Shown here: piece after piece, positions 14,341 to 44,287 of the stretch
Position numbering within the stretch: position 1 is the stretch's first letter
Layout: the number at the start of each line of letters is the position of its first letter
NCBI GenBank assembly: GCA_035708165.1
Contig: DASSSZ010000006.1
Coordinates: 179-64,178 of the forward strand
From: Minisyncoccota bacterium
GTDB taxonomy: Bacteria; Patescibacteriota; Minisyncoccia; Phycocordibacterales; UBA2100
Direction: 5' to 3'
DNA length: 64,000 nt
Position numbers and translations under genes: made by a program
The notes under the pieces: model-generated
Told to the model about the DNA's origin: nothing
Database searches by the model: none
What the model saw: only the letters and a program-made list of their open reading frames with translations

Positions 14341-14493
14341 CGCTTTGGGGCGCGTTGTGAGAGGGCACTACCAGCCGCTTTCTTCGAATCCCGGCCTGTA
14401 CGTCCATCTCGAAGAACTCGGCTCGCTGCCTTGCCAGCACTTCTCCCGGTGTGTCGCTGTTGTGCCATGCGAACTCAGATTATTCCAATAATC

Positions 14494-14559: not shown

Positions 14560-14592
14560 CACAGGAGTGGACTTCCTGTGGATAAGTATGCT

Positions 14593-17107: not shown

Positions 17108-18775
17108 TCAGGCGTTGAGGTCGATGACGCGGCCGAGCTCGTCGAGGGAGGTGATGCCGCGCAGGACCTTCACCATGCCGTCCTGCGCCATCGAGCGGAT
17201 CTCCTGGTGCTTCGCGCCTTCCCAGATCTCGCGCTCGGTCGGGTTCTTGCGGAGGAGCTCTTCGATAGTGCGATCCATGACGATCGCCTCGACGATGGCG
17301 ATGCGTCCCTTATAGCCGATCCCCCCGCATTCTTCGCAGCCGGTCGCGGTCCACATGATGTCGCGGTTCCTGGGCGTGTCTTCCGGGTGGGGGATGTCAG
17401 CCATCAGGCGCTCCACGATATCCCGGTCCGTGCCGGCGATCGGCGTCGCGGCACGGCAGTGCGTGCACAGCTTGCGCACGAGGCGCTGCGCCATGGCGAT
17501 GTTGATCGAGGAGCCGAGGACTTCCGCCTCGATGCCGAAGTCGATGAGGCGCGGGAACGTGCCGGCGGCATCGTTCGTGTGCAGCGTGGAGAAGACGAGG
17601 TGGCCGGTGAGCGCGGCCTGCACGGCGGTCGTCGCCACTTCAGCGTCACGGATCTCGCCGACCATGATCACGTCCGGGTCCTGGCGCAGCGTCGAGCGCA
17701 ATCCCTGCGCGAACGAATAGTCCTTCGAGACCTGCGTCTGCACGATGCCTTCGAGGTGGTACTCGACCGGGTCTTCGATCGTGACGACCTTGTTCTCGGA
17801 CGAGTGCACCGCCGTCAGGAACGCGTAGAGCGTGGTCGTCTTGCCGGAGCCGGTCGGGCCGGTGTTGAGGATCATGCCGTTCGGCTTCTGGATCTCATGA
17901 GTGATGATGTCCATGAAGTAGGAATCGAAGCCGAGCTCCGGCATCGAGAGCGCGATCGTGGTCGGGTCGAGGATGCGCATCACGATGGTCTCCGCGTAGT
18001 TGCCCGGCAGGACCGAGGTGCGGATCTCGATCTCCTTATCGTTCACGATGATCGAGAGCCGCCCGTCCTGCGCGATGTCCTTGAGGTTGAGCTTGAGGCC
18101 GGAGAGCAGCTTGATGCGCGCGGCGACGAGCTCGTACGTCGCGTGGTCGAACTGCAGCACCTCATGGAGCACGCCGTCGAGACGGTAGCGCATGCGCACG
18201 AACGATTCCTCAGGCTCGAGATGCACGTCGGATGCGCCGAGCGAGAGCGCGCCTGCCATGATGACTTCGAGCACGTGCGAGATGCGGTGCGAATCCGTGC
18301 CCGCGATGTAGCGCTCCGCCTGCTCCTTCACGGAGTCGATCGAGTTGATCTCGTTGATCAGCTTCTGGATGGTCTCCTGCGAGATCGTAAGCACGCCCGC
18401 CTCGCTCTCGGTCGAGTAGGAGATGTCCTTATAGCGGTCCCACGCGCGCTCGAGAGATGCGCGTGAGACGATGAATCGGACGATGGAGTAGCCGAGCCGC
18501 TCGATCGACTGCAGCACGGCGAGCGAGTCCTGCCGCTCAGGCGCGCGCATCGCGACGAACACCTTCTTGCCGATCTTGCGGAAGAATGCGAGCTCGGCTT
18601 TCCGCGCGACATCCTCCGGCACGAGCGAGAGCGCATCAGCGTCGATCGAAGTGCGGGTGAGGTCGGTGTAGTCGATGCCGTATTTCTGCGAGAGCATCTG
18701 CGCGAGCTCCTCCTCCTCCTGGCCGCGGAGGTCATCGAGGCGGTCTTCCTGCTTCTTCTCGTCGAACTCGATCAT
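17108..18775 (-). CDS. pilB: Type IV pilus assembly ATPase PilB (GspE-family secretion ATPase)
   Basis: N1/N2 GSPII domains, Walker A GPTGSGKTTT, Asp/His boxes and the tetracysteine CTHC..CEEC zinc motif. The ATG at 18775 (MIEFDEKKQ..) is the start. The ORF-track extension to 19438 overlaps tsaE on the other strand and is not coding. Confidence 0.9.
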   Translation of the reverse strand: MIEFDEKKQEDRLDDLRGQEEEELAQMLSQKYGIDYTDLTRTSIDADALSLVPEDVARKAELAFFRKIGKKVFVAMRAPERQDSLAVLQSIERLGYSIVRFIVSRASLERAWDRYKDISYSTESEAGVLTISQETIQKLINEINSIDSVKEQAERYIAGTDSHRISHVLEVIMAGALSLGASDVHLEPEESFVRMRYRLDGVLHEVLQFDHATYELVAARIKLLSGLKLNLKDIAQDGRLSIIVNDKEIEIRTSVLPGNYAETIVMRILDPTTIALSMPELGFDSYFMDIITHEIQKPNGMILNTGPTGSGKTTTLYAFLTAVHSSENKVVTIEDPVEYHLEGIVQTQVSKDYSFAQGLRSTLRQDPDVIMVGEIRDAEVATTAVQAALTGHLVFSTLHTNDAAGTFPRLIDFGIEAEVLGSSINIAMAQRLVRKLCTHCRAATPIAGTDRDIVERLMADIPHPEDTPRNRDIMWTATGCEECGGIGYKGRIAIVEAIVMDRTIEELLRKNPTEREIWEGAKHQEIRSMAQDGMVKVLRGITSLDELGRVIDLNA

Positions 18776-18841
18776 GTTCCTATTGTATACGACCAGCGCT
18801 CGAAGGCCGCGGCCGGATGGGCAAAATGCTACAATTCCCCC

Positions 18842-19309
18842 ATGGCTGCAGGCGATGCGGACAGCGACGTGGTCACGAAGGACGAGCTCGAGGCGGAAGC
18901 CGCGCGGCTTGCCGATGAGGTGCGCAGAGCGGCTCCCGCAGGGCACGCGGCAGTGATCGCGCTTTCGGGCGATCTCGGCAGCGGCAAGACGACCTTCGCA
19001 CAGGCGTTCGCGCGAGCGCTCGGCATCGAGGCGCATGTGACCAGCCCGACGTTCGTCATCGAGAAGCGCTACCCCGTGCCGCAGGCGGGCAAGCACGCGT
19101 TCCGCACGTTCGTGCATGTCGATGCGTACCGCCTCGATGACCCGAAGGAGCTCGCGCAGCTCGGCTGGCACGGCACGATCGACGACCCGTCGAACATCGT
19201 CCTCATCGAGTGGGCGGACAAGGTGGCTTCCCTCCTGCCGGACGATGCGTATCGCATCGCGCTCGCGTTCCGCGACGAGCGCACGCGCACTCTCACCTAT
19301 GGCGACTAA
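18842..19309 (+). CDS. tsaE: tRNA threonylcarbamoyladenosine biosynthesis protein TsaE (YjeE)
   Basis: P-loop GDLGSGKTTFAQAFARALG and the SPTF.. motif; 155 aa. Confidence 0.85.
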   Translation: MAAGDADSDVVTKDELEAEAARLADEVRRAAPAGHAAVIALSGDLGSGKTTFAQAFARALGIEAHVTSPTFVIEKRYPVPQAGKHAFRTFVHVDAYRLDDPKELAQLGWHGTIDDPSNIVLIEWADKVASLLPDDAYRIALAFRDERTRTLTYGD

Positions 19310-21812
19310 GAAGACGGCACCGAAGGCGGCGAAGAACGCAGCGGCGAAACGCGCGCCGAAGCGCGTACCAACGACGAAGGATGCGTCCGCGAAGAAGCCT
19401 GCGCATGCGCTCGCGGGCGCGAAGCGCCCGCGGGTCATCCTCCTCGATTCTCACGCGATCATGCATCGCGCGTACCACGCGCTGCCGGAGTTCACTTCCG
19501 ACTCCGGCGAGCCGACGGGCGCCCTCTACGGGCTCGTCTCGATGCTGGTGAAGATGGTGCACGACCTCTCGCCCGAGTACATCATCGCGGCATACGACCT
19601 GCCGGGCGGCACCCACCGCCATGAGGTGTACGAGGAGTACAAGGGTACGCGCGGCCCGCTCGATGACGCGCTCGCGCGACAGCTCAACCGCGCACCCGAG
19701 GTGTACGAGGCATTCGGCATCCCGGCGATCGGCGTCAAAGGGTTCGAGGCGGATGACATCCTCGGCACGCTCGCGCACCGCCTGCGCGATACGACCGAAG
19801 CCGACGTCATCATCGCGACCGGCGATCACGACACGCTGCAGCTCGTAGATGATTCGCGCGTGCGCGTGTACACCTTGCGCAAGGGCCTTGCGGACACCGT
19901 GCTCTACGACGCGGATGCCGTGCGCGAACGCTACGGGTTCGGGCCGGAGCACATCGCCGATTACAAGGGGCTCGCCGGGGACCCGTCCGATAACATCAAG
20001 GGCGTGAAGGGGATCGGGCAGAAGAGCGCGACCGAGCTCATCGCCGCATTCGGGGGGATCGAGGATATCTACCGCGTGCTCGAGGCGCATCCCGAGCGGT
20101 TCGCCGAGGCGGGCATCAAGCCGCGCGTGCAGTCGCTCCTCATCGAAGGGAAGGACGATGCGATCTTCAGCAAGATGCTCGCGACCATCCGGACCGATGC
20201 GCCGGTCGTCTACGAACTGCCGAAGGAGACATGGCGCGAGAGTTTCGACGTATCCCGCGCGCTCACGCTCTGCGATGATCTCGGATTCCGCTCGCTCGGC
20301 GGCCGGGTGCGCTCGCTCACGCCCGGGATCGCATTCGACCGCGAGCAGGATGCCGCGGACGCGGACGCGGCCAGCGCGGATGATCCGCGCGAGCTCGCCG
20401 AGGCGAAGGTGATGCTCTGGCTCCTGCACTCCGATATGACGAACCCCGATCGCGAGGATGTCCTGCGCGCGACCAAGACGAAGACGCTCGGCGAGGCGCA
20501 CGCCGCGCTCCTGCAAAGCCTGCGCGCGACCGGCCGCCTCGCGCGCGTCTACGAAGAGATCGAGAAGCCGCTCATCCCGATCGTCCTCTCCATGCACGAG
20601 CTCGGGATCGTCGTCGACAGCGCGTATCTCGGCAGGCTCTCCTCGCGCTACCACGCCGAGCTCGAGACGATCGTTTCGCGCATCTATGAGCTCGCCGGCC
20701 ACGAGTTCAATCTCAACTCGCCGCGCCAGCTCGGCACGGTCCTCTTCGATGAGCTCGGGCTGGGGCAGGGGGGTGCCAAGAAGAAGACGGCGACCGGCCA
20801 GCGCTCGACGCGCGAGGACGAGCTCGCGAAGCTCGCCGGCGAGCACGAGATCATCGGCAAGATCCTCGAATACCGCGAGCTGCAGAAGCTGCTCTCGACC
20901 TACATCGACAACCTGCCCTCCATGGTCGCGGCGGACGGCCGGCTCCATGCGCGGTTCCTGCAGGAGGGCACGACGACCGGCCGCATGGCGAGCGCTGATC
21001 CCAACCTGCAGAACATCCCCACGAAGCCCGGCTACGGCAAGCCGATCCGCGATGCGTTCCGCGCGAGCGAAGGCTACCAGCTCGTCGCGATCGACTACTC
21101 GCAGATCGAGCTTCGGATCGCAGCAGGACTCTCCGGCGACGAACGGCTCATCGAGGTGTTCCGCGAGGGCGGCGATATCCATCGATCCGTCGCGTCGCGC
21201 GTGTTCGGCGTGCCGCCGGAGAATGTGGACGCTGAGATGCGCCGGCGTGCGAAGGTCATCAACTTCGGGATCCTCTACGGCATGGGCGTGAACGCCTTGC
21301 GCGCGAATCTCGGAGACGCGGTCTCGCGCGCGGACGCGGCAGCGTACCTCGCCGGCTACTTCGCGAACTACGCGGGCCTCGCGGCGTACATCGAGCGCGT
21401 GAAGGCCGACGCGGCCCGCCTCGGCTACACCGAGACGCTCTTCGGCAGGCGACGCAGCTTCGCCGGCTTCGACTCGCCGCTGCCGTACGTGCGTGCGGCA
21501 GCCGAGCGCATGGCGGTGAACGCGCCCATCCAGGGTACGCAGGCCGATATCATCAAGCTCGCGATGGTCCGTGCCGACCGGGCGCTCGCCGAGGAAGGCG
21601 CGTCCCTCGATGCGCGGCTCCTCTTGCAGGTGCACGACGAGCTCGTCTACGAGATCATGGACGCGCGCGTGCACGAGCTCGCGAAGCTGATCCGCGGCAT
21701 CATGGAGTCGGTCGCTCCCGAAGACGGCCTCTCAGGCGTTCCGATCATCGCCGAGGTCTCGGCCGGGAAGACCTGGGGATCGCTCTCGCGCATCGAGCGG
21801 AAGGATCTCTGA
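19299..21812 (+). CDS. polA: DNA polymerase I (5'-3' exonuclease + polymerase domains; no obvious intact 3'-5' proofreading motifs noted)
   Basis: ATG at 19299 (MATKKTAPK..), overlapping the tsaE stop by 11 nt. FEN-like N-terminus (LLDSHAIMHRAYHA..), polymerase motifs (..DYSQIELRI.., ..QVHDELV..). The ORF track start at 19116 is an over-extension. Confidence 0.95.
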   Translation: MATKKTAPKAAKNAAAKRAPKRVPTTKDASAKKPAHALAGAKRPRVILLDSHAIMHRAYHALPEFTSDSGEPTGALYGLVSMLVKMVHDLSPEYIIAAYDLPGGTHRHEVYEEYKGTRGPLDDALARQLNRAPEVYEAFGIPAIGVKGFEADDILGTLAHRLRDTTEADVIIATGDHDTLQLVDDSRVRVYTLRKGLADTVLYDADAVRERYGFGPEHIADYKGLAGDPSDNIKGVKGIGQKSATELIAAFGGIEDIYRVLEAHPERFAEAGIKPRVQSLLIEGKDDAIFSKMLATIRTDAPVVYELPKETWRESFDVSRALTLCDDLGFRSLGGRVRSLTPGIAFDREQDAADADAASADDPRELAEAKVMLWLLHSDMTNPDREDVLRATKTKTLGEAHAALLQSLRATGRLARVYEEIEKPLIPIVLSMHELGIVVDSAYLGRLSSRYHAELETIVSRIYELAGHEFNLNSPRQLGTVLFDELGLGQGGAKKKTATGQRSTREDELAKLAGEHEIIGKILEYRELQKLLSTYIDNLPSMVAADGRLHARFLQEGTTTGRMASADPNLQNIPTKPGYGKPIRDAFRASEGYQLVAIDYSQIELRIAAGLSGDERLIEVFREGGDIHRSVASRVFGVPPENVDAEMRRRAKVINFGILYGMGVNALRANLGDAVSRADAAAYLAGYFANYAGLAAYIERVKADAARLGYTETLFGRRRSFAGFDSPLPYVRAAAERMAVNAPIQGTQADIIKLAMVRADRALAEEGASLDARLLLQVHDELVYEIMDARVHELAKLIRGIMESVAPEDGLSGVPIIAEVSAGKTWGSLSRIERKDL

Positions 21813-22575: not shown

Positions 22576-24276
22576 ATGGAACGGGAACCGATCGCGAGCG
22601 CGGGAGCGCGCGGAATCCTCCTCGTCGCAGCGCTCTTCGCGCTTTCGCTCCCCGCCAGCGCGCACGCGCAGGCGAACACGGCGAACTACTGCATCACGAG
22701 CACGAGCCCGGTCCGCGCGGAGACTATTCCCTGGACGCCCACGCAGTGCTGCAACACGGGCCCTGACGGCGAGGCGAGCGCGATCCAGTTCAGCGCGCAG
22801 TGCAGCTTCGGCGGCACGATCAGCGAATCGAACGGCACATCGGGCGCGAGCGGCGGCGGCGGGGGCGGCGGAGGGTCTTCGCAGATCCAGCAGGTCTTAG
22901 GACAGGTCATCCAGCAGCTGATGAAGCAGACGCCTTCGCAGATGGGGACGGCGGGGCAGTGCGGCTCGTCGCTCTCCGGCGTGACCAGCGCGACCGAAGG
23001 CGATCCCCGCTACTGCTCGATCGTCGTGCTCACGCCATGCCCCATCATCATAAAGGTGAGCAAGAACGAATTCAGCGGCAACTGCCCCGATCAGGCCATG
23101 GCGCTCGGCGGCCAGGTCTCCGGCATCGGCTCCCAGCTCTCGGGACTCATCCAGAACGTGATGAAGGGCGTCGTGACGAACCTCGTCGGCTCGATCATCG
23201 GCGGCTTGGGCGGCGGTGGCGGGAGCGGCGGCGCGGCATACCCGACCGGGAGCACGGTGGTCGGCACCGGGACCGGCGACTCGAATCTCTACACCGACAC
23301 GAGCGGCTACAGCACCGGCGCGAACAGCTCGGCGGACATCAGCCAGCTCCTGCAGGACATCCTCAATGGCTCGGCCGGGAGTGGCACGGATACGGGAGTA
23401 TCCGGAACCTCAGGGACGAGCGGCGGCACGGATACGGGCACGTCGGGTTCTGACACGGGAACGTCCGGCACCTCCGGCATATCGGGAACGTCCGGCATAT
23501 CCGGCATATCCGGCACGAGCGGCACAAGCGCGGGTACGCAAGGCAACAGCTCGAGCGGCGTCGTAATCCCGCCGCCGCCATCGTACTTCACGGGCGAGGC
23601 GGGGCAGTCATCGTCCGCCCCGGCCGCGTCGAGCGCGGGCACGGCGCAGAGCGGCGTCGTCGGGAATGTCTGCGCATCGCGGCCGTGGGCGAGCGGCATC
23701 ATCTCGTCGGTCATTCCGACTTCCTTCTTCGACAGCCTCTGCTCGCTCTGGAACGGCGCAGGAAGCGATACGGGCGCAGGGGCGCCGCAATCGCAGACGT
23801 TCGCACCCGATGTCGTCGTACGCGGCATCTCCTGCCCGGCTGTCGCCCGGCCCGGGGTGCCCGTGCGGATCAGCTGGACGTGCGGGCCGCGCGCGACGCT
23901 CTCCGCCGTAGCCGGCTTCACGCTCGCGAACAAGAATCTGACATCCATAATGGTGACGCCGGCCCAGGCGAGCCAGGTCTACGGCATCCAGTGCTCCGAC
24001 GGCTTCGAGAGCGTGTGCACCGTGAACACGATCGATCCGAAGGTACAGCTCGTCGCGACGCCGGCGCATGTGCGCGTCGGATCGCGCACGAGCCTCGCGT
24101 GGGTCTCGCAGGACGTGCAATCGTGCGAAGTCACGGGCCCCTCGATGGATCAGACCGACCTCTACGGCAACGCACAGACGGGTCCCATCACGCAGCCGAC
24201 GACCTTCACCGCGACGTGCAAGACGGCGGCCGGCGAGACCGTCTCGGATTCGGTGACGGTGGATTTCGCGCAGTAA
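22576..24276 (+). CDS. Secreted cysteine-containing Gly/Ser/Thr-rich low-complexity protein with C-terminal tandem beta-domains (paralogous module to the C-terminus of the 29020..33297 protein)
   Basis: Signal peptide ..LLVAALFALSLPASAHAQA. Poly-Gly (GGGGGGGG) and TSGTSGISGTSGISG repeats. C-terminus ..IQCSDGFESVCTVNTIDPKVQLVATPAHVRVGSRTSLAWVSQDVQSCEV.. matches ..VGCSDGTSNSCQVRVLHPLVTLVAFPEAVARGASAQIGWSGADVVACAL.. of the giant protein. Confidence 0.5.
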   Translation: MEREPIASAGARGILLVAALFALSLPASAHAQANTANYCITSTSPVRAETIPWTPTQCCNTGPDGEASAIQFSAQCSFGGTISESNGTSGASGGGGGGGGSSQIQQVLGQVIQQLMKQTPSQMGTAGQCGSSLSGVTSATEGDPRYCSIVVLTPCPIIIKVSKNEFSGNCPDQAMALGGQVSGIGSQLSGLIQNVMKGVVTNLVGSIIGGLGGGGGSGGAAYPTGSTVVGTGTGDSNLYTDTSGYSTGANSSADISQLLQDILNGSAGSGTDTGVSGTSGTSGGTDTGTSGSDTGTSGTSGISGTSGISGISGTSGTSAGTQGNSSSGVVIPPPPSYFTGEAGQSSSAPAASSAGTAQSGVVGNVCASRPWASGIISSVIPTSFFDSLCSLWNGAGSDTGAGAPQSQTFAPDVVVRGISCPAVARPGVPVRISWTCGPRATLSAVAGFTLANKNLTSIMVTPAQASQVYGIQCSDGFESVCTVNTIDPKVQLVATPAHVRVGSRTSLAWVSQDVQSCEVTGPSMDQTDLYGNAQTGPITQPTTFTATCKTAAGETVSDSVTVDFAQ

Positions 24277-24924: not shown

Positions 24925-25908
24925 CTAATACGAGAGCACGTCGACGGTGCGGCCGGACGGGTCGAGGAGCCGGATCACATCGTGCGACGGGTTCCAGAGC
25001 GGTTGCGCGCTGCCGAGGTAGACGCGCCAGGCTGTCCCGGCGAAGCCGCTGTCCCATTGGTGCCTGTCGATGCAGCCATTATATGAGAGCGCGCCCGTGA
25101 CGAAGCTGCGGCACGCATCCGAGAGGCCTGCCGGGAACGAATCGAGGTGGTACGAGCACGACGGCAGGGTCGCGACGTAGTCCACGCATGATGCGCCGTA
25201 CATCTGCAGGTTATCGAGCGTGTCCGGCAGCTCGGACTGCGGCGTCGGGCAGCGGTTCGAAAGGGAGGGAACGAAGTCGCGGAACTGAGCGAGGTACCCT
25301 GAGCACTCATTCTCCTGGAACGAGATGCCGACAGGCGAGACGCCGGAGGCGATGATCGCGGAGCCCCCGGGCGCGAGCGTGATATCCGAGAGCGCCGGGA
25401 CCGCGCCGAGGCGCAGCACGGCAGTGCCGGACGGGAGCGGGATGACGCGGCCGGTGACCGCGCTCTCGAGCGACCAGCCGGCGAGGTCGACGGGCGCCGT
25501 CGCGGTGGCGGAAGCCGTAATCGTCACGTACTCGCTGTCAGGGTCCGCGCTGCCGGCGCCATGGGGCGCGCCTGCAGCCGCGAAGGATACCTCACCGCGC
25601 AGAGGCGATTGCTGCCCGAATTCCTTGGCGCGCTCGATCCGCTTCGCGTCCGCATCCGATCCGGCCGTCCCCGAGCCGCCCTCGACCCATACCGTCGTCC
25701 CGTCGGCGTTCACCTGGGGGACTGCCGGGGCCATGGCCGCCGGCGTGAATGAGACGGGCTTGCCTTTCTGCGATTCGAGATAGCCGGCCACCGGATTCTG
25801 GTACCCGGCAGCAGCATCCTTGATGCGCGCCCACGCGCCGCCGGCGAGCCAGAGATAGGCGCCGATCGCGATCGCGAGCAGGAAGAGGATGGCGAGGAAA
25901 CGGCCCAT
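24925..25908 (-). CDS. Membrane-anchored secreted protein with a lamin-tail-like (LTD) beta-sandwich domain, Cys-rich C-terminus
   Basis: N-terminal TM/signal (MGRFLAILFLLAIAIGAYLWLAG). LTD-like ..DPDSEYVTITASATATAPVDLAGWSLES..GRVIPLP... Eight or more Cys in the C-terminal 120 aa. Confidence 0.45.
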   Translation of the reverse strand: MGRFLAILFLLAIAIGAYLWLAGGAWARIKDAAAGYQNPVAGYLESQKGKPVSFTPAAMAPAVPQVNADGTTVWVEGGSGTAGSDADAKRIERAKEFGQQSPLRGEVSFAAAGAPHGAGSADPDSEYVTITASATATAPVDLAGWSLESAVTGRVIPLPSGTAVLRLGAVPALSDITLAPGGSAIIASGVSPVGISFQENECSGYLAQFRDFVPSLSNRCPTPQSELPDTLDNLQMYGASCVDYVATLPSCSYHLDSFPAGLSDACRSFVTGALSYNGCIDRHQWDSGFAGTAWRVYLGSAQPLWNPSHDVIRLLDPSGRTVDVLSY

Positions 25909-28172: not shown

Positions 28173-28760
28173 CTAGTGCGGGAAGAGCTCGCGCTCGCGC
28201 GCGGCGAGCCGCTCCCAGAGCGGGCGGTAGAGCAGCTCGAACACGCCCCCGTGCGTGCGCACCCGCGCTTCCTTGTACTCAGTGGCCATCGCGAGCGTGA
28301 CGCCGTGCTCCTTCCACAGGAGTCCGTCCTCCATGTAGATATTGAGGGGGTCCATCATCTTATCGAGCGCGTACACGAAGCGGCTTTCTTCATCATCGCG
28401 TCGCTCGTATGCCGCCATGGTCTCGATGAGGCTGCTGAATTCAGGGTGGTCGGCCGCGATCCGCTCCCGCGCCGCGCGCTCGCGCTCCTCTTTCGTCTCC
28501 CGGCAGGCTTCGTCATAGATGTACGTATCCCCGGCGTATGCCTCGACGATGTCATGGCAGAGCGCGTACGCCAGCACACGCTCGCGGTCGAGCGCGAGGT
28601 GCTGCGTATCCATGACGTACCACGCGGCCATCGCGACCTGCCAGCTATGCTCGACCATGTTCGCGCGACGCGTCTCTCCGGGGATCCGCGCCACCCGCTC
28701 GACGCGGTGGGCCGCATGCGTGAGCGAAAGGAAGGAGAGCAGGCGGTCGAGGAAGGGCAT
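28173..28760 (-). CDS. HD-domain phosphohydrolase (YfbR-like 5'-deoxynucleotidase family)
   Basis: ATG at 28760 (MPFLDRLLS..). Metal-binding H..HD..D motifs (..EHSWQVAMAAWY.., ..LCHDIVEAYAGD..). The ORF track extends to 28916 across the tRNA. Confidence 0.7.
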   Translation of the reverse strand: MPFLDRLLSFLSLTHAAHRVERVARIPGETRRANMVEHSWQVAMAAWYVMDTQHLALDRERVLAYALCHDIVEAYAGDTYIYDEACRETKEERERAARERIAADHPEFSSLIETMAAYERRDDEESRFVYALDKMMDPLNIYMEDGLLWKEHGVTLAMATEYKEARVRTHGGVFELLYRPLWERLAARERELFPH

Positions 28761-28837
28761 GCGGCCAGTATACCGGCTCCGGCGGCTCGCTAAAACGCGC
28801 GATAAATGGTACAGTACGGCGGCGAAGCGATTGAACT

Positions 28838-28909
28838 GCTCCCGTAGTTCAATGGATAGAACGCGGGCTTGCGGAGCCCGTAATGTAGGTTCGATTCCTA
28901 CCGGGAGCA
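28838..28909 (+). tRNA. tRNA-Arg (anticodon GCG)
   Basis: Acceptor gctcccg/cgggagc, D-arm gttc-aatggata-gaac, anticodon stem cgggc/gcccg with loop ttGCGga, T-arm gtagg-ttcgatt-cctac. Confidence 0.8.
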
Positions 28910-29019
28910 CTTGCATGGACGAGAGGCGGCCGCACTGCGGCCACCTCTCGTCCGGTATCCGATCCCGCTATGCACGGCAGCGCGTAGCTGCCTGCGCACG
29001 CACCCGGTATCATGAGTGC

Positions 29020-32000
29020 ATGACCACCTGGCGCATCGCCATGCCGATCGTGCTTGCTGCAGCCGTGCTGTGCCTGCCGATCGCCGCGGCAGCCACGACG
29101 GGCACCGATGCGCAGGGGAGCGGAGGCACGGCAGGTTCGCCGCAGGCGACGACAGTGAGCAATACCGACGAGAGCACCGACTCGGCCGGCGTCTCCACGA
29201 GCGGCGGCAACACGACCATTACGGGGACGGCGCACAAGCCGACGTGCGACTGCGAGGATATGAGCACGTGCACGCCGGACCAGAAGCAGCAGCTGATGAA
29301 TTCCTGCAACCGGACATGCGGGACGATCTCGTGGACGGACGAGACCGGCTCATCGCATGCATGCGTGAAGACGGGCGGCGGCTGCACAGGGGGCGGCGGG
29401 GGCGCGTCCTGCAGCGCGACGGACCTCAAGACCGTGGCGTCGCGCCTCAATGCCGGCCTGCCAGTCACGCTCAATGAGGACGGAAAGTTCTATTCGAACG
29501 TATCGATCGGCAGCGCCTCGGGCGGCGGCCTCTCGCTCGAGAAGATCTTCGGCGACGATGCGCCCGCCGCACCGGCTTCTGAGAGCGGCGTGACGGATCC
29601 CGGCCTCCTCACGCCGACCCCGGAGAGCGAGATCTCGCCCCCGAACCTCGCTGGCGTGACGGGAAGCAAGGATCCCGCCCAGGCCCCCATCACGACGGCG
29701 CCGACAGCTGCGAGCACGCCGGGCTTCCTGGTGGACAGTTCATCGTATATGGCGGACATGGGCGACGCGCCGCTCTCCGGCGGCAATGCCTTCGTCCCGC
29801 AGGATCGCTCGCCCGTGCAGACGAGCAGCTTCACCGGCTTCTTCCCGACGCTGCCAGTCTCCGGGTCATCGCCGGAGCAGGCATACCTCTCGAGCGGCGG
29901 CCTGCTCAGCAGCCATGCCTCGGCGAATGCGGGCACGTTCTCGCTGTACGCCCGCGATTACGGCGCGCTCTATGGCGGCACGGGAAATTCGGAGAATGTC
30001 GCGAGCCTCGTGACGGCGCAGACCGCGTATGAGAACCCGAGCTATGACAGCACATGCTCCGGCGTCGGCGCGTGCGGCATCGGCCAGTACATCCCGTCCA
30101 CGTGGAATGCCGATTACGGCAAGATGCTCTCGGCGACGCAGAACCTTGCCGCGAACGGCACGCCTTCCGAGCAGCAGGCGGCGAACGAGCTGCTCACGCA
30201 CATCGGCTCGCTCTCCGGGACCGACCTGCGCAGCGATCCGCAGACCGTGGCGGCGGTGATGGCATACCACGACGCGGGTCTCTACCCGAGCTTCACACAG
30301 ACGGCGCAGAACCTCAATGCGAACTACGGCACGAACCTTTCCGTGAGCGATGTCGCGCAGATCGAGCATTTCGGGACCGGCTACTACAACACGCTCAAGA
30401 ACTCGCCGACCACGCCGATCACCAGCGTGCAGAGCAGCTTCCTCGCGCAGAACCCGGCTGTCGCGCGCTACTGCTCATCGCCGTGCACCATGATCCAGGC
30501 AGCGCAGGCGGTCGGCGCGGGCTACAGCGGCCGGCCGATCAGCGTCGCCAATAACCTCATCGGATCGACCGACTCGTTCGTCCTTCCCGGGAAGGGGTCG
30601 AGCGCAGGGCAGGCGTTCCAGGTCGCCTCGAATGAGTCGAGCGCGCCGTTCCCGGCAACCTATTCGGGCCCGCCGCGCGGGAACCCCCTCGACGACGTCT
30701 TCGCCTACCTCGGGCAGAACGCGCAAATGGGCGATACGGGCGTCGTCACGACCGGCAACGGCGCACTCGTCGCGATCAATCAGGCGCTCGGCAACCCGAT
30801 CCAGACAGTCACGGAATCCGTCGCGCAGAAGGTACAGGACGGCCTTTCGCAGGTCGGCGCGTGGGCGCTCGGCGGCTATACGGGCGCAGGGAATGCGGGA
30901 AGCAGCGTACCGGATGGAGGCCCGGCGGCAGGTGGCACGGCGGTCGCGGCCGGTCCTGCGCCCGCGGAAGGCACGAGCGTATCGGCTGCGCCCGCAGGTG
31001 AGGATGCGAACCCGATCGTCACTGTGACGGCAGGAACGCCGAGCGTGGCCGACGGCCTGCGCGCAATCGGCACCTGGGCCGTGGACGCCAACGAAAGCGG
31101 GACGATCTCCGCTGACATGTCCGCGATCGGGACGGCCGGACAGGGGTCGCTCGCCGGCACGGACCTCTCCGCATACGCGCAGACCCATGGCCTTACCTCG
31201 ATGGGCCAGGTCGTGAACGGGGATTTCAATGCGCTCGGCATGACGGGCGATGGGTCGGCTGAAGAGGGCCTGCGCGCCATCGGCAGCTGGGCCGTCCCGC
31301 AGGGGAGCGGCTCCGCGATGATCGGCGGCGCGCTCGATTCGGAAGGAGGCGCAGGCTCCGAATACGCGCCGACCCTGACCACTGCTCCTGGCACGGGCGA
31401 ATACGTCGTCGGCACGTCGCCCGACGTGCCGACGGATTTCGATACTTCCGGCGTCTCGCAGGCCTCAGGGCTCGCGACGGGGCAACCCGGCATCGCGCTT
31501 CCGGTCGGGCCCTCCGGCGCGGCGATCCCTGCGGGCGGCGAAGGCTCGGCTGATGGCGCGGATATGCCAGGAATCATCGGCGGCACGCCCCTCCCTCCCT
31601 CGGGCTCGGCAATGATCCAGCCGGGCAACATTACGGTCGTGAAGGGCAGCATCTTCGGGACGATCGGCACCATTGCGCATGCGGCGACGGCGAATATCTC
31701 GAACTATTTCCAATCGCTCGCGAACGCGCAGAAGGGAGTGGGTACGGGAGGCGACACCGCCGAAGCGGTGCACGACGGACTCATGAACGTAGGCACATGG
31801 GCAGTCCCCGGCGCGCCTTCGGAAGCGCCGGACGCATCGCCCTCGGGGACGGCGCCTGCAAGCGGCATGGATGACCTCTTCACGGCGCTCGGCGGGACGG
31901 ACGCTGCGGGCGTCACGCCCACCCTCATGGAGACCACGCAGACGATCCCGGGCACGGTCCTCGCGCCATCGCGATCCACGGTCGCGCAGAGCCAGGAATA

Positions 32001-33297
32001 CCAGCAGGGCATGACGGATCTGCTCAACGGGAGCGCCGTGCGGTTCGGCTCGCTCTCACCCGGCGACCAGAAGAAGCTCATCGGCTACATCCCGCAGATC
32101 ACGGCAATCGCGGGCGACAGCAGCCTCACGGAGGCGCAGAAGAAGGCGCAGATCACGACAGTGCTCATGAGCGACCCGGGCGGGAAGTACGCCGGGCATG
32201 ACGCCGGCTTCGCGATCGAGGTGAGCACCATCCTGCCGGAATCCTTCAAGGAGACAGGAGACCTCTCGAAGCTCGGACTCGGTACCGCCGATCAGGCCAT
32301 GACGAAGATCAGCAGCGTTTATACCAATGCGGCGCAGGCGCTGACCACGACGGCGCCCAGCACGCAGACGACGAGCTACCAGGTGACGCCGGGCACTGCC
32401 GTATCGCAGGCGCTCGGGGAGACGCCGATGGAAACCGATATCGGCATCGACCAGGCCATGACACCATCGGGCGCGGCGGTAGGCGCACCCGCTGTTCCGG
32501 CGAATCCGGCCGCAGGAGGCTCGTCCGCCGGCACGGGTGCATCCGCTCCCGCGGGTGCGGGCGCGAGCGCCGGTACGGGCGCGAGCGCGCCATCGTCCGC
32601 CTCGCCGCTCGGGGGCATCCTCGATCTCATCGGCAGGTCCGGCTCGTCGATCAGCAACGCATTGAGCGGGCTGCTCTCGGGGCTCTTCGGCGGCGGCTCG
32701 AGCCAGGGCGGTTCCTCACAGGGCGGAGCACCGCAGGGCAGCGCGTCGCGCCCCGCGTTCACGTGCGATCCTGCAGCGGTCGTCAGCAGCGCTGAGGCGA
32801 CCGTGACGATCGCCTGGCAATGCGACAGCGGATCGTCATCCGCGCGCGGCACGGGCTTCGGGCAGGGCACGCTCGCGCCGGCCGGGCGCGCCACAGTCAT
32901 GATCGGGACGACGACAGACGAGTGGCTGTCGTACGGAGTCGGCTGCAGCGACGGCACGAGCAACTCCTGCCAGGTGCGCGTGCTGCATCCGTTGGTGACC
33001 CTCGTCGCCTTCCCGGAGGCGGTCGCGCGAGGCGCTTCGGCGCAGATCGGCTGGTCGGGCGCTGACGTGGTGGCGTGCGCGCTCTATGATGCAGACGGCA
33101 CGCTGCGTGCGCATGGCGGTGCCAACGGGTCGTACGCGACCGTGCCGCTTTCGCGCTCGGTCGTGTTCCGCATGGCGTGCCGCAGCAGCCTCGGCACCAT
33201 CATCGTCGCGAGCACGACGATCCCGGTCATCGGCGATGCCAGCGCGCCGCTCGATACGCCGCTGCCGGCGGCGGTGGCGATCCCGGACGCGCAGTAG
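29020..33297 (+). CDS. Giant secreted/surface protein (about 1425 aa): signal peptide, Cys-rich N-terminal module, poly-Gly, lytic-transglycosylase (SLT/lysozyme-like) candidate domain, long Ser/Thr/Gly/Ala low-complexity region, C-terminal tandem beta-domains
   Basis: Start at the ATG at 29020 (MTTWRIAMPIVLAAAVLCLPIAAAATTG). The upstream ORF-track portion overlaps the HD gene and tRNA-Arg. SLT-like ..AYENPSYDSTCSGVGACGIGQYIPSTWNADYG.. (compare ES..A.S.AGA.GLMQF.PSTW) near nt 29990..30400. The C-terminal module is paralogous to the 22576..24276 protein. Confidence 0.6.
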   Translation: MTTWRIAMPIVLAAAVLCLPIAAAATTGTDAQGSGGTAGSPQATTVSNTDESTDSAGVSTSGGNTTITGTAHKPTCDCEDMSTCTPDQKQQLMNSCNRTCGTISWTDETGSSHACVKTGGGCTGGGGGASCSATDLKTVASRLNAGLPVTLNEDGKFYSNVSIGSASGGGLSLEKIFGDDAPAAPASESGVTDPGLLTPTPESEISPPNLAGVTGSKDPAQAPITTAPTAASTPGFLVDSSSYMADMGDAPLSGGNAFVPQDRSPVQTSSFTGFFPTLPVSGSSPEQAYLSSGGLLSSHASANAGTFSLYARDYGALYGGTGNSENVASLVTAQTAYENPSYDSTCSGVGACGIGQYIPSTWNADYGKMLSATQNLAANGTPSEQQAANELLTHIGSLSGTDLRSDPQTVAAVMAYHDAGLYPSFTQTAQNLNANYGTNLSVSDVAQIEHFGTGYYNTLKNSPTTPITSVQSSFLAQNPAVARYCSSPCTMIQAAQAVGAGYSGRPISVANNLIGSTDSFVLPGKGSSAGQAFQVASNESSAPFPATYSGPPRGNPLDDVFAYLGQNAQMGDTGVVTTGNGALVAINQALGNPIQTVTESVAQKVQDGLSQVGAWALGGYTGAGNAGSSVPDGGPAAGGTAVAAGPAPAEGTSVSAAPAGEDANPIVTVTAGTPSVADGLRAIGTWAVDANESGTISADMSAIGTAGQGSLAGTDLSAYAQTHGLTSMGQVVNGDFNALGMTGDGSAEEGLRAIGSWAVPQGSGSAMIGGALDSEGGAGSEYAPTLTTAPGTGEYVVGTSPDVPTDFDTSGVSQASGLATGQPGIALPVGPSGAAIPAGGEGSADGADMPGIIGGTPLPPSGSAMIQPGNITVVKGSIFGTIGTIAHAATANISNYFQSLANAQKGVGTGGDTAEAVHDGLMNVGTWAVPGAPSEAPDASPSGTAPASGMDDLFTALGGTDAAGVTPTLMETTQTIPGTVLAPSRSTVAQSQEYQQGMTDLLNGSAVRFGSLSPGDQKKLIGYIPQITAIAGDSSLTEAQKKAQITTVLMSDPGGKYAGHDAGFAIEVSTILPESFKETGDLSKLGLGTADQAMTKISSVYTNAAQALTTTAPSTQTTSYQVTPGTAVSQALGETPMETDIGIDQAMTPSGAAVGAPAVPANPAAGGSSAGTGASAPAGAGASAGTGASAPSSASPLGGILDLIGRSGSSISNALSGLLSGLFGGGSSQGGSSQGGAPQGSASRPAFTCDPAAVVSSAEATVTIAWQCDSGSSSARGTGFGQGTLAPAGRATVMIGTTTDEWLSYGVGCSDGTSNSCQVRVLHPLVTLVAFPEAVARGASAQIGWSGADVVACALYDADGTLRAHGGANGSYATVPLSRSVVFRMACRSSLGTIIVASTTIPVIGDASAPLDTPLPAAVAIPDAQ

Positions 33298-33311: not shown

Positions 33312-33791
33312 TCAGAACCCGAAGAATTCGAGCACCGCGAGCGCGAGCGATTCCGTGAGCGGCTTCTCGGGGATCTCGTGCGCGACGAACCACGCGTGCA
33401 CGTCGCGCGGATCGACGCCGACGAGCGGGATCACGAGGTCCGGCGTCATGAAGCGCGGCGTATCGACGAGGAGCAGCGGCGCCTCGTCCGCGTCCTCGGC
33501 CGGTTCGCTGATCCAGAACGCGTGGAGGTGATCGGGCGGATAGTGTACGCCGTCGATCGAGAGCCCGCGGCGCGTCAGGGCGAACACGACAGTCTTCTGC
33601 TCGCGCTTGGCGAGAATCGCCATAGTGAAGGCGGCGGCGATGATCAGGATGCCGAAGAGCGTGTCGCCGAGGATGACGGCGGTCGCCGCAGCCGCAGCCG
33701 CGATGATGCCGAGCGCCCAGAACCAATCCGCCGATTTATCGAGCGGCTGGTGCTCGATGGCTTCCCACCGGATGGTCGTCTCGTCATGCAT
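33312..33791 (-). CDS. Hypothetical membrane protein (two TM helices plus a cytoplasmic beta-rich domain)
   Basis: 159 aa; hydrophobic ..WFWALGIIAAAAAATAVILGDTLFGILIIAAAFTMAIL... Confidence 0.3.
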   Translation of the reverse strand: MHDETTIRWEAIEHQPLDKSADWFWALGIIAAAAAATAVILGDTLFGILIIAAAFTMAILAKREQKTVVFALTRRGLSIDGVHYPPDHLHAFWISEPAEDADEAPLLLVDTPRFMTPDLVIPLVGVDPRDVHAWFVAHEIPEKPLTESLALAVLEFFGF

Positions 33792-34033: not shown

Positions 34034-35869
34034 ATGGCTTCCGCACCTCTTGAGCTCGGCTCGATCAGCGCCAGCATCCGCGCGCTCGGCCGCTGGACCC
34101 GCACGCACATGATCCGCACTGCGATCGCGGTGCTCGTCATCGCCGCCCTTGCCTGGTGGGGATGGGGCGCGCTGCACCCGAGCGTCGCAGAGGCTGAGTA
34201 CGTCCTCGGCACGGTCGCCAAGGGGACGGTCGTCGCGACCGTCTCGGCTTCGGGGCAGGTGGCGAGCGTGGATTCGGTCAATATCACCCCGAAAGCGTCG
34301 GGCGAGCTCACCTGGGTCGGCGTGCAGGAGGGCGACACGGTCCGCGCCGGACAGGCGATCGCGTCAATCGACGACGCGGACGCGAAGAAGCAGATCGCCG
34401 ATGCCGAGCAGTCGCTCGCGCAGGCGAAGCTCGCGTATGAGAAAGACCAGGCGCAGGCCCCGCTCGACTACCAAGGGGCGCAGCAGTCGGTCAGCAACGC
34501 GCAGTCGAGCCTCGCCTCCACGTACACCGATACGCTGAACGCGCTCGCGAGCGCCTACCTCTCGCTGCCGGCAGTGGTGTCGGATGCGCACGATGCGCTT
34601 TACGGATACAGCCTCTCGCCGAAGAAGACGCAGTGGAACGTGGACACCCTCAAGGCATACTTCATCCCGTTCGCTGCCGATTCCCGGGACATCGGCTCAT
34701 TCGCGGAGAAGGCCGAGCAGGAGTATGCGGCAGCGAAGCCGAAGTATGATGCGAGCCTCGCGGCATACAAGCAGCTGACGTACTACTCCGCGACGAGCTC
34801 GATCGAGCAGAATCTCGATGCGTCCATCGACATGGCGACGGCCGTCGCCCAGTCGCTGAGCAGCACGGTCAATTTCATAGACGAAGCAGAGCAGGATGCG
34901 GATACGGAGGGCGTCACGCTCGACTCGGCCGTCGCGACGCTCCGCACGACGGCGCAGGGCGATCTCACGACCGCGAACTCGGTCCTCGGCTCGCTCGAGA
35001 AGGAGCGCTCGGCCATCACGGCCGCGAAGCAGGCGCTCGCGTCGGCACAGAACAGCTTCGCGATCGCACAGATCGGGAACAATGCCTCGGGCACGAACCC
35101 GATCAGCCTGCAGTCCGAGGCGTACTCGATCGCAGGCCAGGAGCAGGACCTCGCGACGCTCAAGGATGACCTTGCCGATTACACCGTCACGGCGCCCTTC
35201 GCGGGGACGATCGCGTCGCTCGATTCGCACGCGGGAGATACGGTCTCGACCGGCACGACTATCGCGACCTTGATCTCGCGGCAGCAGGTCGCGCAGCTCT
35301 CGCTCAACGAGGTGGACGCGGCGAAGGTGAAGGCGGGGGACAAGGCGACGCTCACGTTCGATGCGCTGCCGGATACGACGATGACCGGCACGGTCGCTTC
35401 GATCGACCCGGTGGGCACCGTGACGCAAGGCGTCGTCTCGTACGACATCACGATCACGTTCGATACGCAGAACGACGCGGTGAAGCCCGGCATGACCGTG
35501 AATGCCGATATCGAGACGGCCGTGGCACAGGATGCGCTCATCGTGCCGAGCGCTGCGGTAACGACCGCAGGCGGCACGAGCTACGTCATGGTCGTGAACG
35601 GCGCGGATGGAGCCGCGGATGGAAGCACGATCCCGGCTGCAGGCGCGCAGATCGAGCGCGTGCCGGTCACGACGGGCATCTCGGATGCTACCGAAGTGGC
35701 GATCACGGACGGCCTCACGGACGGCCAGCGCATCGTCGCGGGCACTCGCGGCGCGAGCGCGAGCCCTAGTAGCGGCGCTGCCGTGCGCGCCGGCGGGGCA
35801 GGCGGCGGCGCGAACCGCGCATTCGGCGGCGGCTTCGGCGGCGCAGGCACGATCCGCATCGGCGGCTGA
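34034..35869 (+). CDS. Efflux membrane-fusion protein (HlyD/MacA-family periplasmic adaptor) with a Gly-rich C-terminal tail
   Basis: N-terminal TM, biotinyl/lipoyl-like half-motifs (..VASVDSVNITPKASGELTWVGVQEGDTVRAGQAIASID.., ..VTAPFAGTIASLD..), and a long coiled-coil. It precedes the MacB-type ABC genes. Confidence 0.75.
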   Translation: MASAPLELGSISASIRALGRWTRTHMIRTAIAVLVIAALAWWGWGALHPSVAEAEYVLGTVAKGTVVATVSASGQVASVDSVNITPKASGELTWVGVQEGDTVRAGQAIASIDDADAKKQIADAEQSLAQAKLAYEKDQAQAPLDYQGAQQSVSNAQSSLASTYTDTLNALASAYLSLPAVVSDAHDALYGYSLSPKKTQWNVDTLKAYFIPFAADSRDIGSFAEKAEQEYAAAKPKYDASLAAYKQLTYYSATSSIEQNLDASIDMATAVAQSLSSTVNFIDEAEQDADTEGVTLDSAVATLRTTAQGDLTTANSVLGSLEKERSAITAAKQALASAQNSFAIAQIGNNASGTNPISLQSEAYSIAGQEQDLATLKDDLADYTVTAPFAGTIASLDSHAGDTVSTGTTIATLISRQQVAQLSLNEVDAAKVKAGDKATLTFDALPDTTMTGTVASIDPVGTVTQGVVSYDITITFDTQNDAVKPGMTVNADIETAVAQDALIVPSAAVTTAGGTSYVMVVNGADGAADGSTIPAAGAQIERVPVTTGISDATEVAITDGLTDGQRIVAGTRGASASPSSGAAVRAGGAGGGANRAFGGGFGGAGTIRIGG

Positions 35870-35873
35870 TCCC

Positions 35874-36596
35874 ATGCTCGAGCTCGCAGGAATCACGAAG
35901 ACGTACGGGGAGGGGGATGCCGCCTTCGAGGCCTTGAAGGGCGTCAGCTTCACAGTCTCCGATGGGGAATTCGTCGCGATCATGGGACCGTCCGGTTCCG
36001 GCAAATCGACGACGATGCATATCCTCGGGTGCCTCGATACGCCGAGCAGCGGGTCGTACCGCCTCAACGGGACCGATGTCTCGACCATGAGCGACGACCA
36101 GCTCGCGGATGTGCGCAGGGAGAAGATCGGCTTCGTCTTCCAATCCTTCAACCTGCTTCCGCGAACGACGGTGCTTCGGAATGTCATGCTGCCGCTTATC
36201 TATACTGGTGTCCCGCCCGAGGAGCGCGCGCTCCGCGCGCGTTCGGCGCTCCTCGCTGCGGGCCTCAAGGAGTCGCATTTCCTGCATAGGAGCAACGAGC
36301 TTTCCGGCGGCCAGGTGCAGCGCGTGGCGATCGCCCGTGCGCTCGTGAACGACCCGGTCCTGATCCTCGCCGACGAGCCGACCGGCAACCTGGATACGCG
36401 GACGGGCGAGCTCGTCCTCCATACGTTCCAGCGGCTCAATGAGGAGCGCGGCACGACCGTGGTGCTCATCACGCACGAGCCGTATATCGCGGAGCATGCG
36501 ACGCGCATCATCACCATCCGCGACGGGCGGATCATCGCTGATCAGCCGAACCGGTCGCGCCGCACGGCGCGCCCTGACGACTATGACGATCAATGA
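35874..36596 (+). CDS. ABC transporter ATP-binding protein (MacB/LolD-type)
   Basis: Walker A GPSGSGKST, signature LSGGQVQRVAIARAL, Walker B ILADEPTGNLD, H-loop. ATG at 35874 (MLELAGITK..). Confidence 0.9.
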   Translation: MLELAGITKTYGEGDAAFEALKGVSFTVSDGEFVAIMGPSGSGKSTTMHILGCLDTPSSGSYRLNGTDVSTMSDDQLADVRREKIGFVFQSFNLLPRTTVLRNVMLPLIYTGVPPEERALRARSALLAAGLKESHFLHRSNELSGGQVQRVAIARALVNDPVLILADEPTGNLDTRTGELVLHTFQRLNEERGTTVVLITHEPYIAEHATRIITIRDGRIIADQPNRSRRTARPDDYDDQ

Positions 36597-37818
36597 CATC
36601 CTGCAGGAGACCTATATCGCGCTGTCGGCGAACAAGGCGCGCTCGGGGCTCACGATCCTCGGCATCGTGATCGGCATCGCCTCGGTGATCGCGCTCGTCG
36701 CGATCGGACAGGGCTCGACAGCGGCCATCCAGTCGAGCATCGCATCGCTCGGGAGCAATCTCATCGAGATCTCCCCGGGGGCGCAGCGCACGCCGGGTTC
36801 GCCCGTGCGGCAGGCAGCCGGCAGCGCGGCATCGCTCAGCGCCGACGATGCGGACGCGATCCTCTCCGGGGTCGCGGACGTCGCGAATGTCGCGCCGTCC
36901 ATCAGCGCGCGCGAGCAGGTGGCAGCCAAAGGCACGAACACGAACACGTCCGTCATGGGGGTGACGCCGAGCTATGCTTCCGTGCGGGACGTCGCCGTCT
37001 CGGATGGCACGTTCATCACGGACAGCCAGGAGGCCTCTGCCGCTAAGGTGGCGGTGCTCGGCCCTGCAGCGAGCGCGAACCTCTTCGGGTACAGCGGCGC
37101 GACGACGAGCGATATCGTGGGGCAGCGCATCCGCATCAATAATCTCGATTTCACGGTGATCGGCGTGAGCGCCCCTAAGGGCGGCAGCGGCTTCAGCAAC
37201 GAGGATGATGTCATCTATGTGCCGATGCTCTCTGCGCAGCGCTACCTCACCGGGTCCCGGTCCGTGAACTCGATCAGCGTCGAAGCGGCGAGCCAGGATG
37301 CGATGACGCAGGTCCAGGCGGACATCACCAGCCTCCTGCTCGCGCGGCATGGCATCAGCGACCCTGCACGTGCGGACTTCAGCGTGCTCAATCAGAACGA
37401 CCTCATCTCCGCCGTCTCATCGGTCAGCCAGACCCTGACGCTGCTCCTCGGCGCGATCGCCGGCATCTCGCTCCTCGTAGGCGGCATCGGCATCATGAAC
37501 ATGATGCTCACGACGGTGACCGAGCGCACGCGCGAGATCGGCCTGCGCAAAGCAATCGGCGCGACGCGGACGGACATCACTACGCAGTTCCTCGCCGAGG
37601 CGATCGCGCTCACGGTGGTGGGCGGAGTGATCGGGATCGCTTTGGGGTGGGGGATCTCCGCCATCGTGGATGCGACGGGCGCGGTCACGACGGTGGTCAG
37701 TCTCGGCTCGGTGGGGCTCGCGTTCGGCGTCTCGGCCCTGATCGGCATCGTCTTCGGCTACTACCCGGCTCGGCGCGCCTCGCGCCTCAACCCGATCGAG
37801 GCGCTGCGGTACGAGTAG
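36583..37818 (+). CDS. ABC transporter permease (MacB-like periplasmic domain + FtsX 4-TM domain)
   Basis: ATG at 36583 (MTINDILQETYIALSANKARSGLTILGIVIGIASVIA..), overlapping the ATPase stop by 14 nt. C-terminal FtsX-like TMs (..LGAIAGISLLVGGIGIMNMMLTTVTERTREIGLRKAIGA..). Confidence 0.8.
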   Translation: MTINDILQETYIALSANKARSGLTILGIVIGIASVIALVAIGQGSTAAIQSSIASLGSNLIEISPGAQRTPGSPVRQAAGSAASLSADDADAILSGVADVANVAPSISAREQVAAKGTNTNTSVMGVTPSYASVRDVAVSDGTFITDSQEASAAKVAVLGPAASANLFGYSGATTSDIVGQRIRINNLDFTVIGVSAPKGGSGFSNEDDVIYVPMLSAQRYLTGSRSVNSISVEAASQDAMTQVQADITSLLLARHGISDPARADFSVLNQNDLISAVSSVSQTLTLLLGAIAGISLLVGGIGIMNMMLTTVTERTREIGLRKAIGATRTDITTQFLAEAIALTVVGGVIGIALGWGISAIVDATGAVTTVVSLGSVGLAFGVSALIGIVFGYYPARRASRLNPIEALRYE

Positions 37819-44188: not shown

Positions 44189-44287
44189 GCGCGCTACTCG
44201 CGCACCTGCATGCGATATACTGTACGCATGCAAGGCATCGAGACACCGCGCGTCCGGCACGCGCGCGCCGAGGGAGAGCCGCATGGG

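Follow-up and report, generated by a model that had tools for sequence, protein, structure and literature searches.

In a 64,000-nucleotide stretch of contig DASSSZ010000006.1 from a Minisyncoccota bacterium (assembly GCA_035708165.1; hereafter the window), a gene at 29020..33297 on the forward strand encodes a predicted secreted protein of 1425 residues, which we call the giant protein. At residues ~300-525, within a conserved core of 275 residues, it contains a strongly diverged lysozyme-fold domain of the GH23/SLT type. We hold it to be probable that the giant protein is a Sec-exported muralytic enzyme, in which the GH23-type domain would act through Glu338 on a long, flexible and acidic tether, with a terminal disulfide-bonded beta-sandwich as a likely binding module. 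An original prediction, made from the sequence alone, had described a giant low-complexity protein of about 1425 residues with a signal peptide and a segment matching the SLT catalytic region with its Glu. The open reading frame (ORF), composition and N-terminus confirm the first part, and the domain assignment stands, with an invariant Glu338 and homology to SLT proteins.

The ORF is uninterrupted from its ATG at 29020, which was taken as the sensible start because a longer reading from 28519 crosses a tRNA-Arg gene and a divergent HD-hydrolase gene. The GC content at third codon positions (GC3) is 0.83, matching the neighbouring genes and typical of the window, and the overall GC content is 0.686 compared with 0.649 for the window. 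We estimate the chance of 1425 stop-free codons at such a base composition at about 1e-16, and a spurious high-GC ORF is ruled out by GC3, orthologues and synteny. A 100% identical NCBI entry, from a 103-kb contig, is deposited as 'MAG TPA: hypothetical protein VFL98_03670 [Candidatus Paceibacterota bacterium]'.

The conserved core spans residues 250-525 (29767..30594, +) and consists of a lead-in (residues 250-297) with the conserved motif S[FY]xGF..T.P..GS, followed by the all-alpha lysozyme-like domain. SLT motifs I and II lie at residues 328-362 (30001..30105, +) and read ASLVTAQTAYE338NPSYDSTCSGVGACGIGQYIPSTW, with the proposed catalytic Glu338 encoded at nucleotides 30031-30033. No variation is seen among the three family members (the giant protein and the orthologues P0002 and P0003) at Glu338, S347-G348 and G353-I354-x-Q356. 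In motif I, Glu338 aligns with the Glu of Slt70 and of a Kocuria protein, stands at a helix end and is followed by Asn. In motif II, S347-G348...G353-I354-x-Q356 aligns with SPVGA(S/Q)GL(M/A)Q. Further invariant alignment columns form the motifs NGTPSE (residues 379-384), RSDP (404-407), EHFGTGYY (449-456) and C485-x3-C489 (30154..30486, +), for which no canonical SLT counterpart was identified and which are specific to the family.

Profile comparisons place this core among SLT proteins. With the family alignment as query, hhalign matched a Kocuria plasmid SLT+M23 protein at a probability of 93.9% (E 1.6e-7); this protein itself scores 2.5e-17 against Pfam SLT. The giant protein is 53% identical to it over 38 columns, in which 'AQTAYE338NP...SGVGACGIGQYIPSTWN' stands against 'AQLAQESGW...SPVGAQGLAQFMPSTWN' and Glu338 falls on the E of 'QES'. 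A Streptomyces protein combining lytic transglycosylase (LT) and NlpC/P60 domains was matched over 102 columns (probability 91.5%, E 8.7e-7). Comparison with five E. coli SLT domains gave a P of 3.8e-4, with Glu338 on the catalytic-motif Glu ('ES' of Slt70). Scored with a hidden Markov model (HMM) of E. coli SLT domains, P0003 exceeded 900/900 shuffled controls and the giant protein all but one. A tblastn search against plasmids returned 16 weak matches, nearly all in actinobacterial plasmid proteins annotated as SLT, LT+NlpC/P60 or LT+M23 wall hydrolases. Pfam SLT was also the top match, at sub-threshold scores, of the sliced-out domain (E 0.082) and, independently, of P0003 (E 0.047).

The AlphaFold model of the core, built from the three-sequence alignment, is all-alpha (predicted template modelling score 0.65; mean predicted local distance difference test score, pLDDT, 61.7) and is consistent with the lysozyme-like all-alpha fold of GH23/SLT enzymes. 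Glu338 ends a long helix, 49-89 in model numbering. In Foldseek searches, the phage enzyme gp144 (PDB) and transglycosylase-like proteins of jumbo phages (BFVD) ranked at the top without reaching significance. The original prediction had named two outcomes that would speak against it, a region without lysozyme-like fold and conserved Glu, or a protein of low complexity only; we found instead a predicted lysozyme-like domain with an invariant Glu beside the low-complexity sequence.

Several observations weigh against the enzymatic interpretation. The HMM comparison names SLT as the nearest Pfam family but at 12.9 bits for the giant protein and 13.7 for P0003, both below the PF01464 gathering cut-off of 21.3; P0002 showed nothing in the same SLT scan, and the full-length giant protein had zero matches in Pfam and NCBIfam. 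The Ser of the canonical 'ES' is replaced by Asn ('ENP'). Motif III, 'AYNxG', is weakly recognisable as M-A-Y-H-D-A-G at residues 413-419, aligned to 'QYNRS' of the Streptomyces protein, and is not conserved in the orthologues, which have ANRKSE and AAHYSA. Pfam scans of the giant protein revealed no recognised peptidoglycan-binding module (LysM, SH3b, PG_binding). The core model is shallow, being derived from three sequences, and its motif II loop has pLDDT below 50. The best Foldseek E value is 0.65, and searches of PDB sequences, whether run with the single domain or with profiles of the core and the C-terminus, gave nothing meaningful.

The family is exceptionally narrow. An exhaustive phmmer search with residues 291-524 against 1.84 billion protein cluster representatives recovered only two real relatives, P0002 (1275 residues, E 5.5e-41) and P0003 (1467 residues, E 8e-37), in agreement with the earlier remark that no homologue of this architecture came to mind. 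A fourth match, P0004, proved to be a spurious repeat protein. A word-indexed homology search with the full-length query found only the giant protein itself, and found nothing with the domain or the family alignment; no relative appeared in the GTDB species-representative genomes scanned. P0002 and P0003 are syntenic orthologues, and the three proteins have in common only a signal-peptide-like N-terminus, the core of ~275 residues and one C-terminal beta domain with four Cys. Mean column identity in the core (residues 250-525) is 60%, and the orthologue cores share only ~40-50% identity. The giant protein as a whole is 39-41% identical to its orthologues over ~300 residues and otherwise unalignable, whereas the products of flanking genes keep 53-80% identity to their orthologues from end to end; its gene is the fastest-evolving of an otherwise well-conserved housekeeping block. 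The core begins ~300 residues from the N-terminus in the giant protein and P0002 and ~870 residues in for P0003, so its distance from either end is not fixed. P0002 also carries an extra, apparently globular insert in its spacer at residues ~880-1040 (…GSIRHNVDGDGYGRTSDVRL…MVHVGTG…). The guess that this insert is a (metallo)peptidase was dropped, as it has no Pfam, PDB or phage match.

At the N-terminus, sequence reading and hydropathy point to a Sec-type signal peptide at residues 1-26 (29020..29097, +), with R5, a hydrophobic stretch of 19 residues (Kyte-Doolittle 2.48) and then AAA|T. The N-termini of both orthologues are equivalent, with VHA|G and THA|G at their ends, and the signal peptide of the original prediction is thus borne out as a signal-peptide-like feature of the whole family. 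The stretch is the sole membrane-grade hydrophobic segment of the giant protein (Kyte-Doolittle >2), and it could alternatively be an uncleaved signal anchor. Inspection of motifs and hydropathy at the other end showed no C-terminal sorting signal: neither an LPXTG-like motif nor a hydrophobic tail is present, and the C-terminus reads ...AAVAIPDAQ. The orthologues stop directly after their conserved beta domain. On sequence reading, A-V-L-C18 does not fit an N-terminal lipobox. The giant protein resembles neither sortase substrates nor lipoproteins, and with no covalent wall-anchoring signal it would be released, held non-covalently, or retained by an uncleaved signal anchor. The Cys-rich N-terminal module proposed earlier is present as 8 Cys in residues 76-131 (29245..29412, +), but it is missing from both orthologues, has no Pfam match and is a feature of this one protein, not of the family.

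Beyond the core, residues 526-1240 (30595..32739, +) form an acidic Ser/Thr/Gly/Ala/Pro-rich spacer that is predicted to be disordered. These five residue types make up 0.59 of the spacer, which has a net charge of -38, and 56.5% of the giant protein. In the AlphaFold model of residues 526-1425, pLDDT is below 50 in 763/900 residues, so that both composition and low pLDDT confirm the long Ser/Thr/Gly/Ala low complexity noted in the original prediction. Moderate model confidence is confined to a helical island at residues ~1014-1057 of the spacer (pLDDT 58-70) and to the conserved beta-sandwich. The spacer cannot be aligned to the orthologues. It contains four copies of [DE]GLxx[VI]GxWA[VL] at residues 606-617, 677-688, 748-759 and 918-929 (30835-31806); one similar copy occurs in P0003 (residue 516), and AlphaFold draws the first copy in the giant protein within a helix.

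Ahead of the C-terminal domain, alignment reveals a Gly-rich, moderately hydrophobic segment at residues 1195-1226 (32602..32697, +), with counterparts in both orthologues (hydropathy peaks at residue 1104 of P0002 and 1307 of P0003). We rejected it as a membrane helix, its hydropathy being too low and an Asp and an Arg lying within it. The conserved C-terminal domain, residues 1243-1324 (32746..32991, +), is an Ig-like beta-sandwich by conservation and AlphaFold modelling. It has four invariant Cys (1249, 1268, 1309, 1317) and 40-42% identity across all three proteins, and its strands are modelled at pLDDT 51-80. It has no Pfam or PDB sequence match and is presumed to be a binding or targeting module. 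A second beta-rich region with two Cys follows at residues 1325-1404 (32992..33231, +), identified from predicted strands with pLDDT below 50 and missing from both orthologues. Of the two C-terminal Cys-containing beta domains proposed originally, the first is therefore conserved and modelled, while the second has low model confidence and is not a family feature. The two show no detectable mutual similarity, and the idea that one duplicates the other was dropped.

Taken as an enzyme, the giant protein would be exported by the Sec pathway to the cell exterior. There Glu338, at the C-terminal end of its long helix, would serve as the general acid in cleaving the N-acetylmuramic acid (MurNAc)-beta-1,4-N-acetylglucosamine (GlcNAc) bond of peptidoglycan glycan strands. 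The product would be 1,6-anhydro-MurNAc if the enzyme is a lytic transglycosylase, or a reducing end if it is a muramidase. The remainder would be a flexible, acidic and largely disordered tether, which places ~270 residues ahead of the core and ~700 behind it, and the disulfide-bonded beta-sandwich at the end would probably serve as the binding or targeting module.

The target may be the producer's own wall, for space-making or turnover, or the wall of a contacting cell, and we give the two about equal weight. The own wall is the default for such enzymes, the gene is part of a housekeeping block on the chromosome, and a class A penicillin-binding protein and a Mur ligase encoded in the window show that the organism makes peptidoglycan. 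In favour of another cell's wall are the extremely narrow and fast-diverging family, the lack of a generic peptidoglycan-binding module and the very long tether. A more specific, host-directed version is tentative and somewhat doubtful: as a 'tethered drill', the protein would be fixed at the interface of episymbiont and host by its beta-sandwich modules or signal anchor, and the spacer of ~700 residues would let the transglycosylase reach and open the partner's peptidoglycan for nutrient or DNA uptake. If so, an arms race with the host would explain why all but the active core diverges so rapidly, and this high-GC Paceibacterota clade would be predicted to live on a murein-walled bacterium and not on archaea.

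The position of the gene is conserved. At the P0002 locus (L001) the order is rpsT, HD hydrolase, giant gene and a convergent membrane protein of 158 residues. At the P0003 locus (L002) it is rpsT, giant gene and a protein of 161 residues, with the HD gene missing. Gene order in L002 matches the window both upstream (pilB, polA, holA, Mur ligase, ruvA, rpsT) and downstream (response regulator and kinase, ruvX, tRNA-binding protein, pilM). The counterpart of the small membrane protein in the window, 159 residues with two predicted membrane helices (33312..33791, -), was recognised as an ORF and by synteny and is 61-63% identical to the L001 and L002 proteins. It adjoins the giant gene at all three loci that reach past its 3' end (window, L001, L002/L003), its C-terminus is very conserved (...TPRFMTPDLVIPL...LEFFGF), and it has no Pfam, NCBIfam or PHROG match.

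A non-catalytic role was weighed against the enzymatic one: the lysozyme-like domain could have lost activity and become a lectin-like module that binds glycans, carried by a long and flexible adhesin at the cell surface. The replacement of ES by EN, the degenerate motif III, the sub-threshold Pfam score, the dominance of disordered spacer and terminal beta modules in the architecture, and the fastest evolution in the syntenic block would all fit such an adhesin. We nevertheless consider it unlikely, because Glu338 and G-I-x-Q are invariant although the orthologue cores share so little identity, as is expected for an active site. Poorer still are the prospects of a dedicated space-making transglycosylase for type IV pilus assembly, which we regard as very unlikely. 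The original prediction placed the gene amid type IV pilus genes and suggested, as its second option, a functional tie to the pilus. pilB (17108-19438, -) and pilM (44210-45352) do lie in the same 27-kb stretch, in a long-range order that recurs in L002, but pilB ends 9.6 kb upstream and pilM starts 10.9 kb downstream of the giant gene. Between the two pilus genes are polA, holA, a Mur ligase, ruvA, rpsT, a tRNA, the HD hydrolase, a MacAB-like ABC system, a two-component system, UDG and ruvX, and housekeeping genes on both strands separate the giant gene from either. "Amid" is thus too strong and the tie unsupported. Specialised VirB1-like transglycosylases are assigned to secretion systems or pili by a place within or next to the operon of the machine they serve; here the nearest pilus genes are at the distances just given, and the giant gene has its own divergent upstream region behind a tRNA. 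The shared pil order is uninformative on pili because the whole housekeeping block is conserved in L002.

The position beside that tRNA also raises the possibility of a mobile-element or phage remnant, either a tape-measure protein, a virion-associated lysin or a conjugation hydrolase. The giant gene lies directly downstream of tRNA-Arg(GCG) (28838..28910, +; ARAGORN), its best structural match is a phage enzyme, its best BFVD matches are jumbo-phage proteins, and its nearest sequence relatives are actinobacterial plasmid hydrolases. Against this, no integrase, phage or type IV secretion system (T4SS) genes were seen flanking the gene, and its place between rpsT/HD and the small membrane protein is kept at L001 and L002. 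A search of PHROGs gave no match and tblastn against 50,697 phage records only E >= 0.2, and the gene has a GC3 typical of the window. A tape-measure protein or virion lysin would be recognised by a phage neighbourhood and phage-family similarity, whereas the flanks here are conserved housekeeping genes. We consider an insertion of this kind extremely improbable, and we retain the exported muralytic enzyme as the preferred reading.

The same tRNA-Arg(GCG) lies upstream of the giant genes in L001-L003 but faces the other way from them, which implies a small local inversion. On sequence reading, the tRNA gene in the window is followed by a GC-rich inverted repeat at ~28919-28953 (GACGAGAGG...CCTCTCGTC) with no T-run. 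The HD-hydrolase ORF (28173-28916, -) overruns the tRNA gene and takes its 'VGIEPT' N-terminus from the T-arm of the tRNA, read backwards; its true start should be further downstream, as the alignment with the L001 orthologue begins at residue 48. On the other side of the giant gene, 34034-37818 (+) encodes the MacAB-like system, comprising an HlyD-type adaptor, an ABC ATPase and a MacB/FtsX permease. In L002 the ABC system is missing and its place is taken by small ORFs and a PIF1-type helicase, a lineage-specific difference beside the giant gene.

Other features of the window were recorded in passing. Its GC content is 65%, compared with 50% in L001 and 56% in L002, despite conserved gene order and 53-80% protein identity, implying a strong shift of base composition within the clade. 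An ORF of 566 residues at 22576-24276 (+) has no Pfam match, and only its last ~150 residues match a counterpart of 224 residues in L002; this gene, too, may be evolving fast, or its ORF may be over-extended. At 24925-25908 (-), a protein of 327 residues shows a sub-threshold match to the lamin-tail domain (LTD) and 54% identity in L002. A Type ISP restriction-modification enzyme (methylase and Type_ISP_C) is encoded at 11024-14266 (+), with a lower GC content of 0.56-0.60 across 12001-16000, and was possibly acquired horizontally. The dnaA-dnaN pair at 4230-6947 (+), with a local GC dip to 0.53, probably marks the replication origin region.

Compared with known systems, the giant protein departs from the GH23 SLT enzymes, or family 1 lytic transglycosylases (PF01464; E. 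coli Slt70, MltE, MltC), in scoring below the gathering cut-off, in having 'ENP' for 'ES' and in its poorly kept motif III. Its core is about twice the size of the canonical SLT domain, has its own invariant motifs (NGTPSE, RSDP, EHFGTGYY, CxxxC) and is embedded in ~1100 residues of low-complexity sequence. To the phiKZ endolysin/lytic transglycosylase gp144 (PDB 3BKH) it is 13% identical, and neither sequence searches nor PHROGs gave a significant match. The gp144 chain in 3BKH has 268 residues; the giant protein is chromosomal, bears a signal peptide and has 1425 residues. Actinobacterial resuscitation-promoting factors such as RpfA, which act on the producer's own wall, likewise have a signal peptide, a lysozyme/LT-like domain of small size and a long region of low complexity. 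The giant protein has no match to the Rpf domain (Pfam Transglycosylas, PF06737) and differs in size and in its C-terminal beta modules.

PrgK of pCF10 and TraG of pIP501 are multidomain cell-wall hydrolases of monoderm conjugation systems (PMC12102498), with which the giant protein shares an exported SLT domain in a monoderm-type envelope. The actinobacterial plasmid SLT+M23 and LT+NlpC/P60 proteins are its closest sequence relatives for motifs I-II (53% over 38 residues; hhalign 92-94%). These hydrolases have ~360 residues with an SLT and a peptidase domain, whereas the giant protein has no peptidase domain and a very long disordered tether, and a Pfam scan of window ORFs revealed no T4SS genes.

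A life on other cells is assumed for Patescibacteria, and the ways in which they penetrate or remodel cell envelopes are largely unexplained; secreted lytic transglycosylases are already among the suspects, and a perspective proposes that they compromise the envelopes of hosts (PMC11665869). A catalogue of VirB1-like enzymes exists for the phylum (PMC12102498), and SLT domains occur in the giant 'Archaeovorins' of Omnitrophota (bioRxiv 10.1101/2023.11.21.568195). The giant protein has in common with the secreted transglycosylases and the Archaeovorins that a muralytic domain is part of a large protein, secreted or at the surface, made by a bacterium that is ultrasmall or predatory, and the same host-directed role can be speculated for it. 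It differs in that no sequence relationship to them is demonstrated and its family has three members with one recognisable enzymatic domain. To this picture the giant gene adds a lineage-restricted LT form, a double-sized SLT-like core on an exceptionally long disordered tether, and the 275-residue core is a concrete, expressible domain with a single predicted catalytic residue. The enzyme class and the idea of its role are already known; the novelty lies in the variant. Its three-member family is unassigned at Pfam and NCBIfam thresholds in the present scans, the giant protein itself is deposited at NCBI as 'hypothetical', and an enlarged SLT-like core carries its own invariant motifs amid ~1100 residues of rapidly changing low-complexity sequence.

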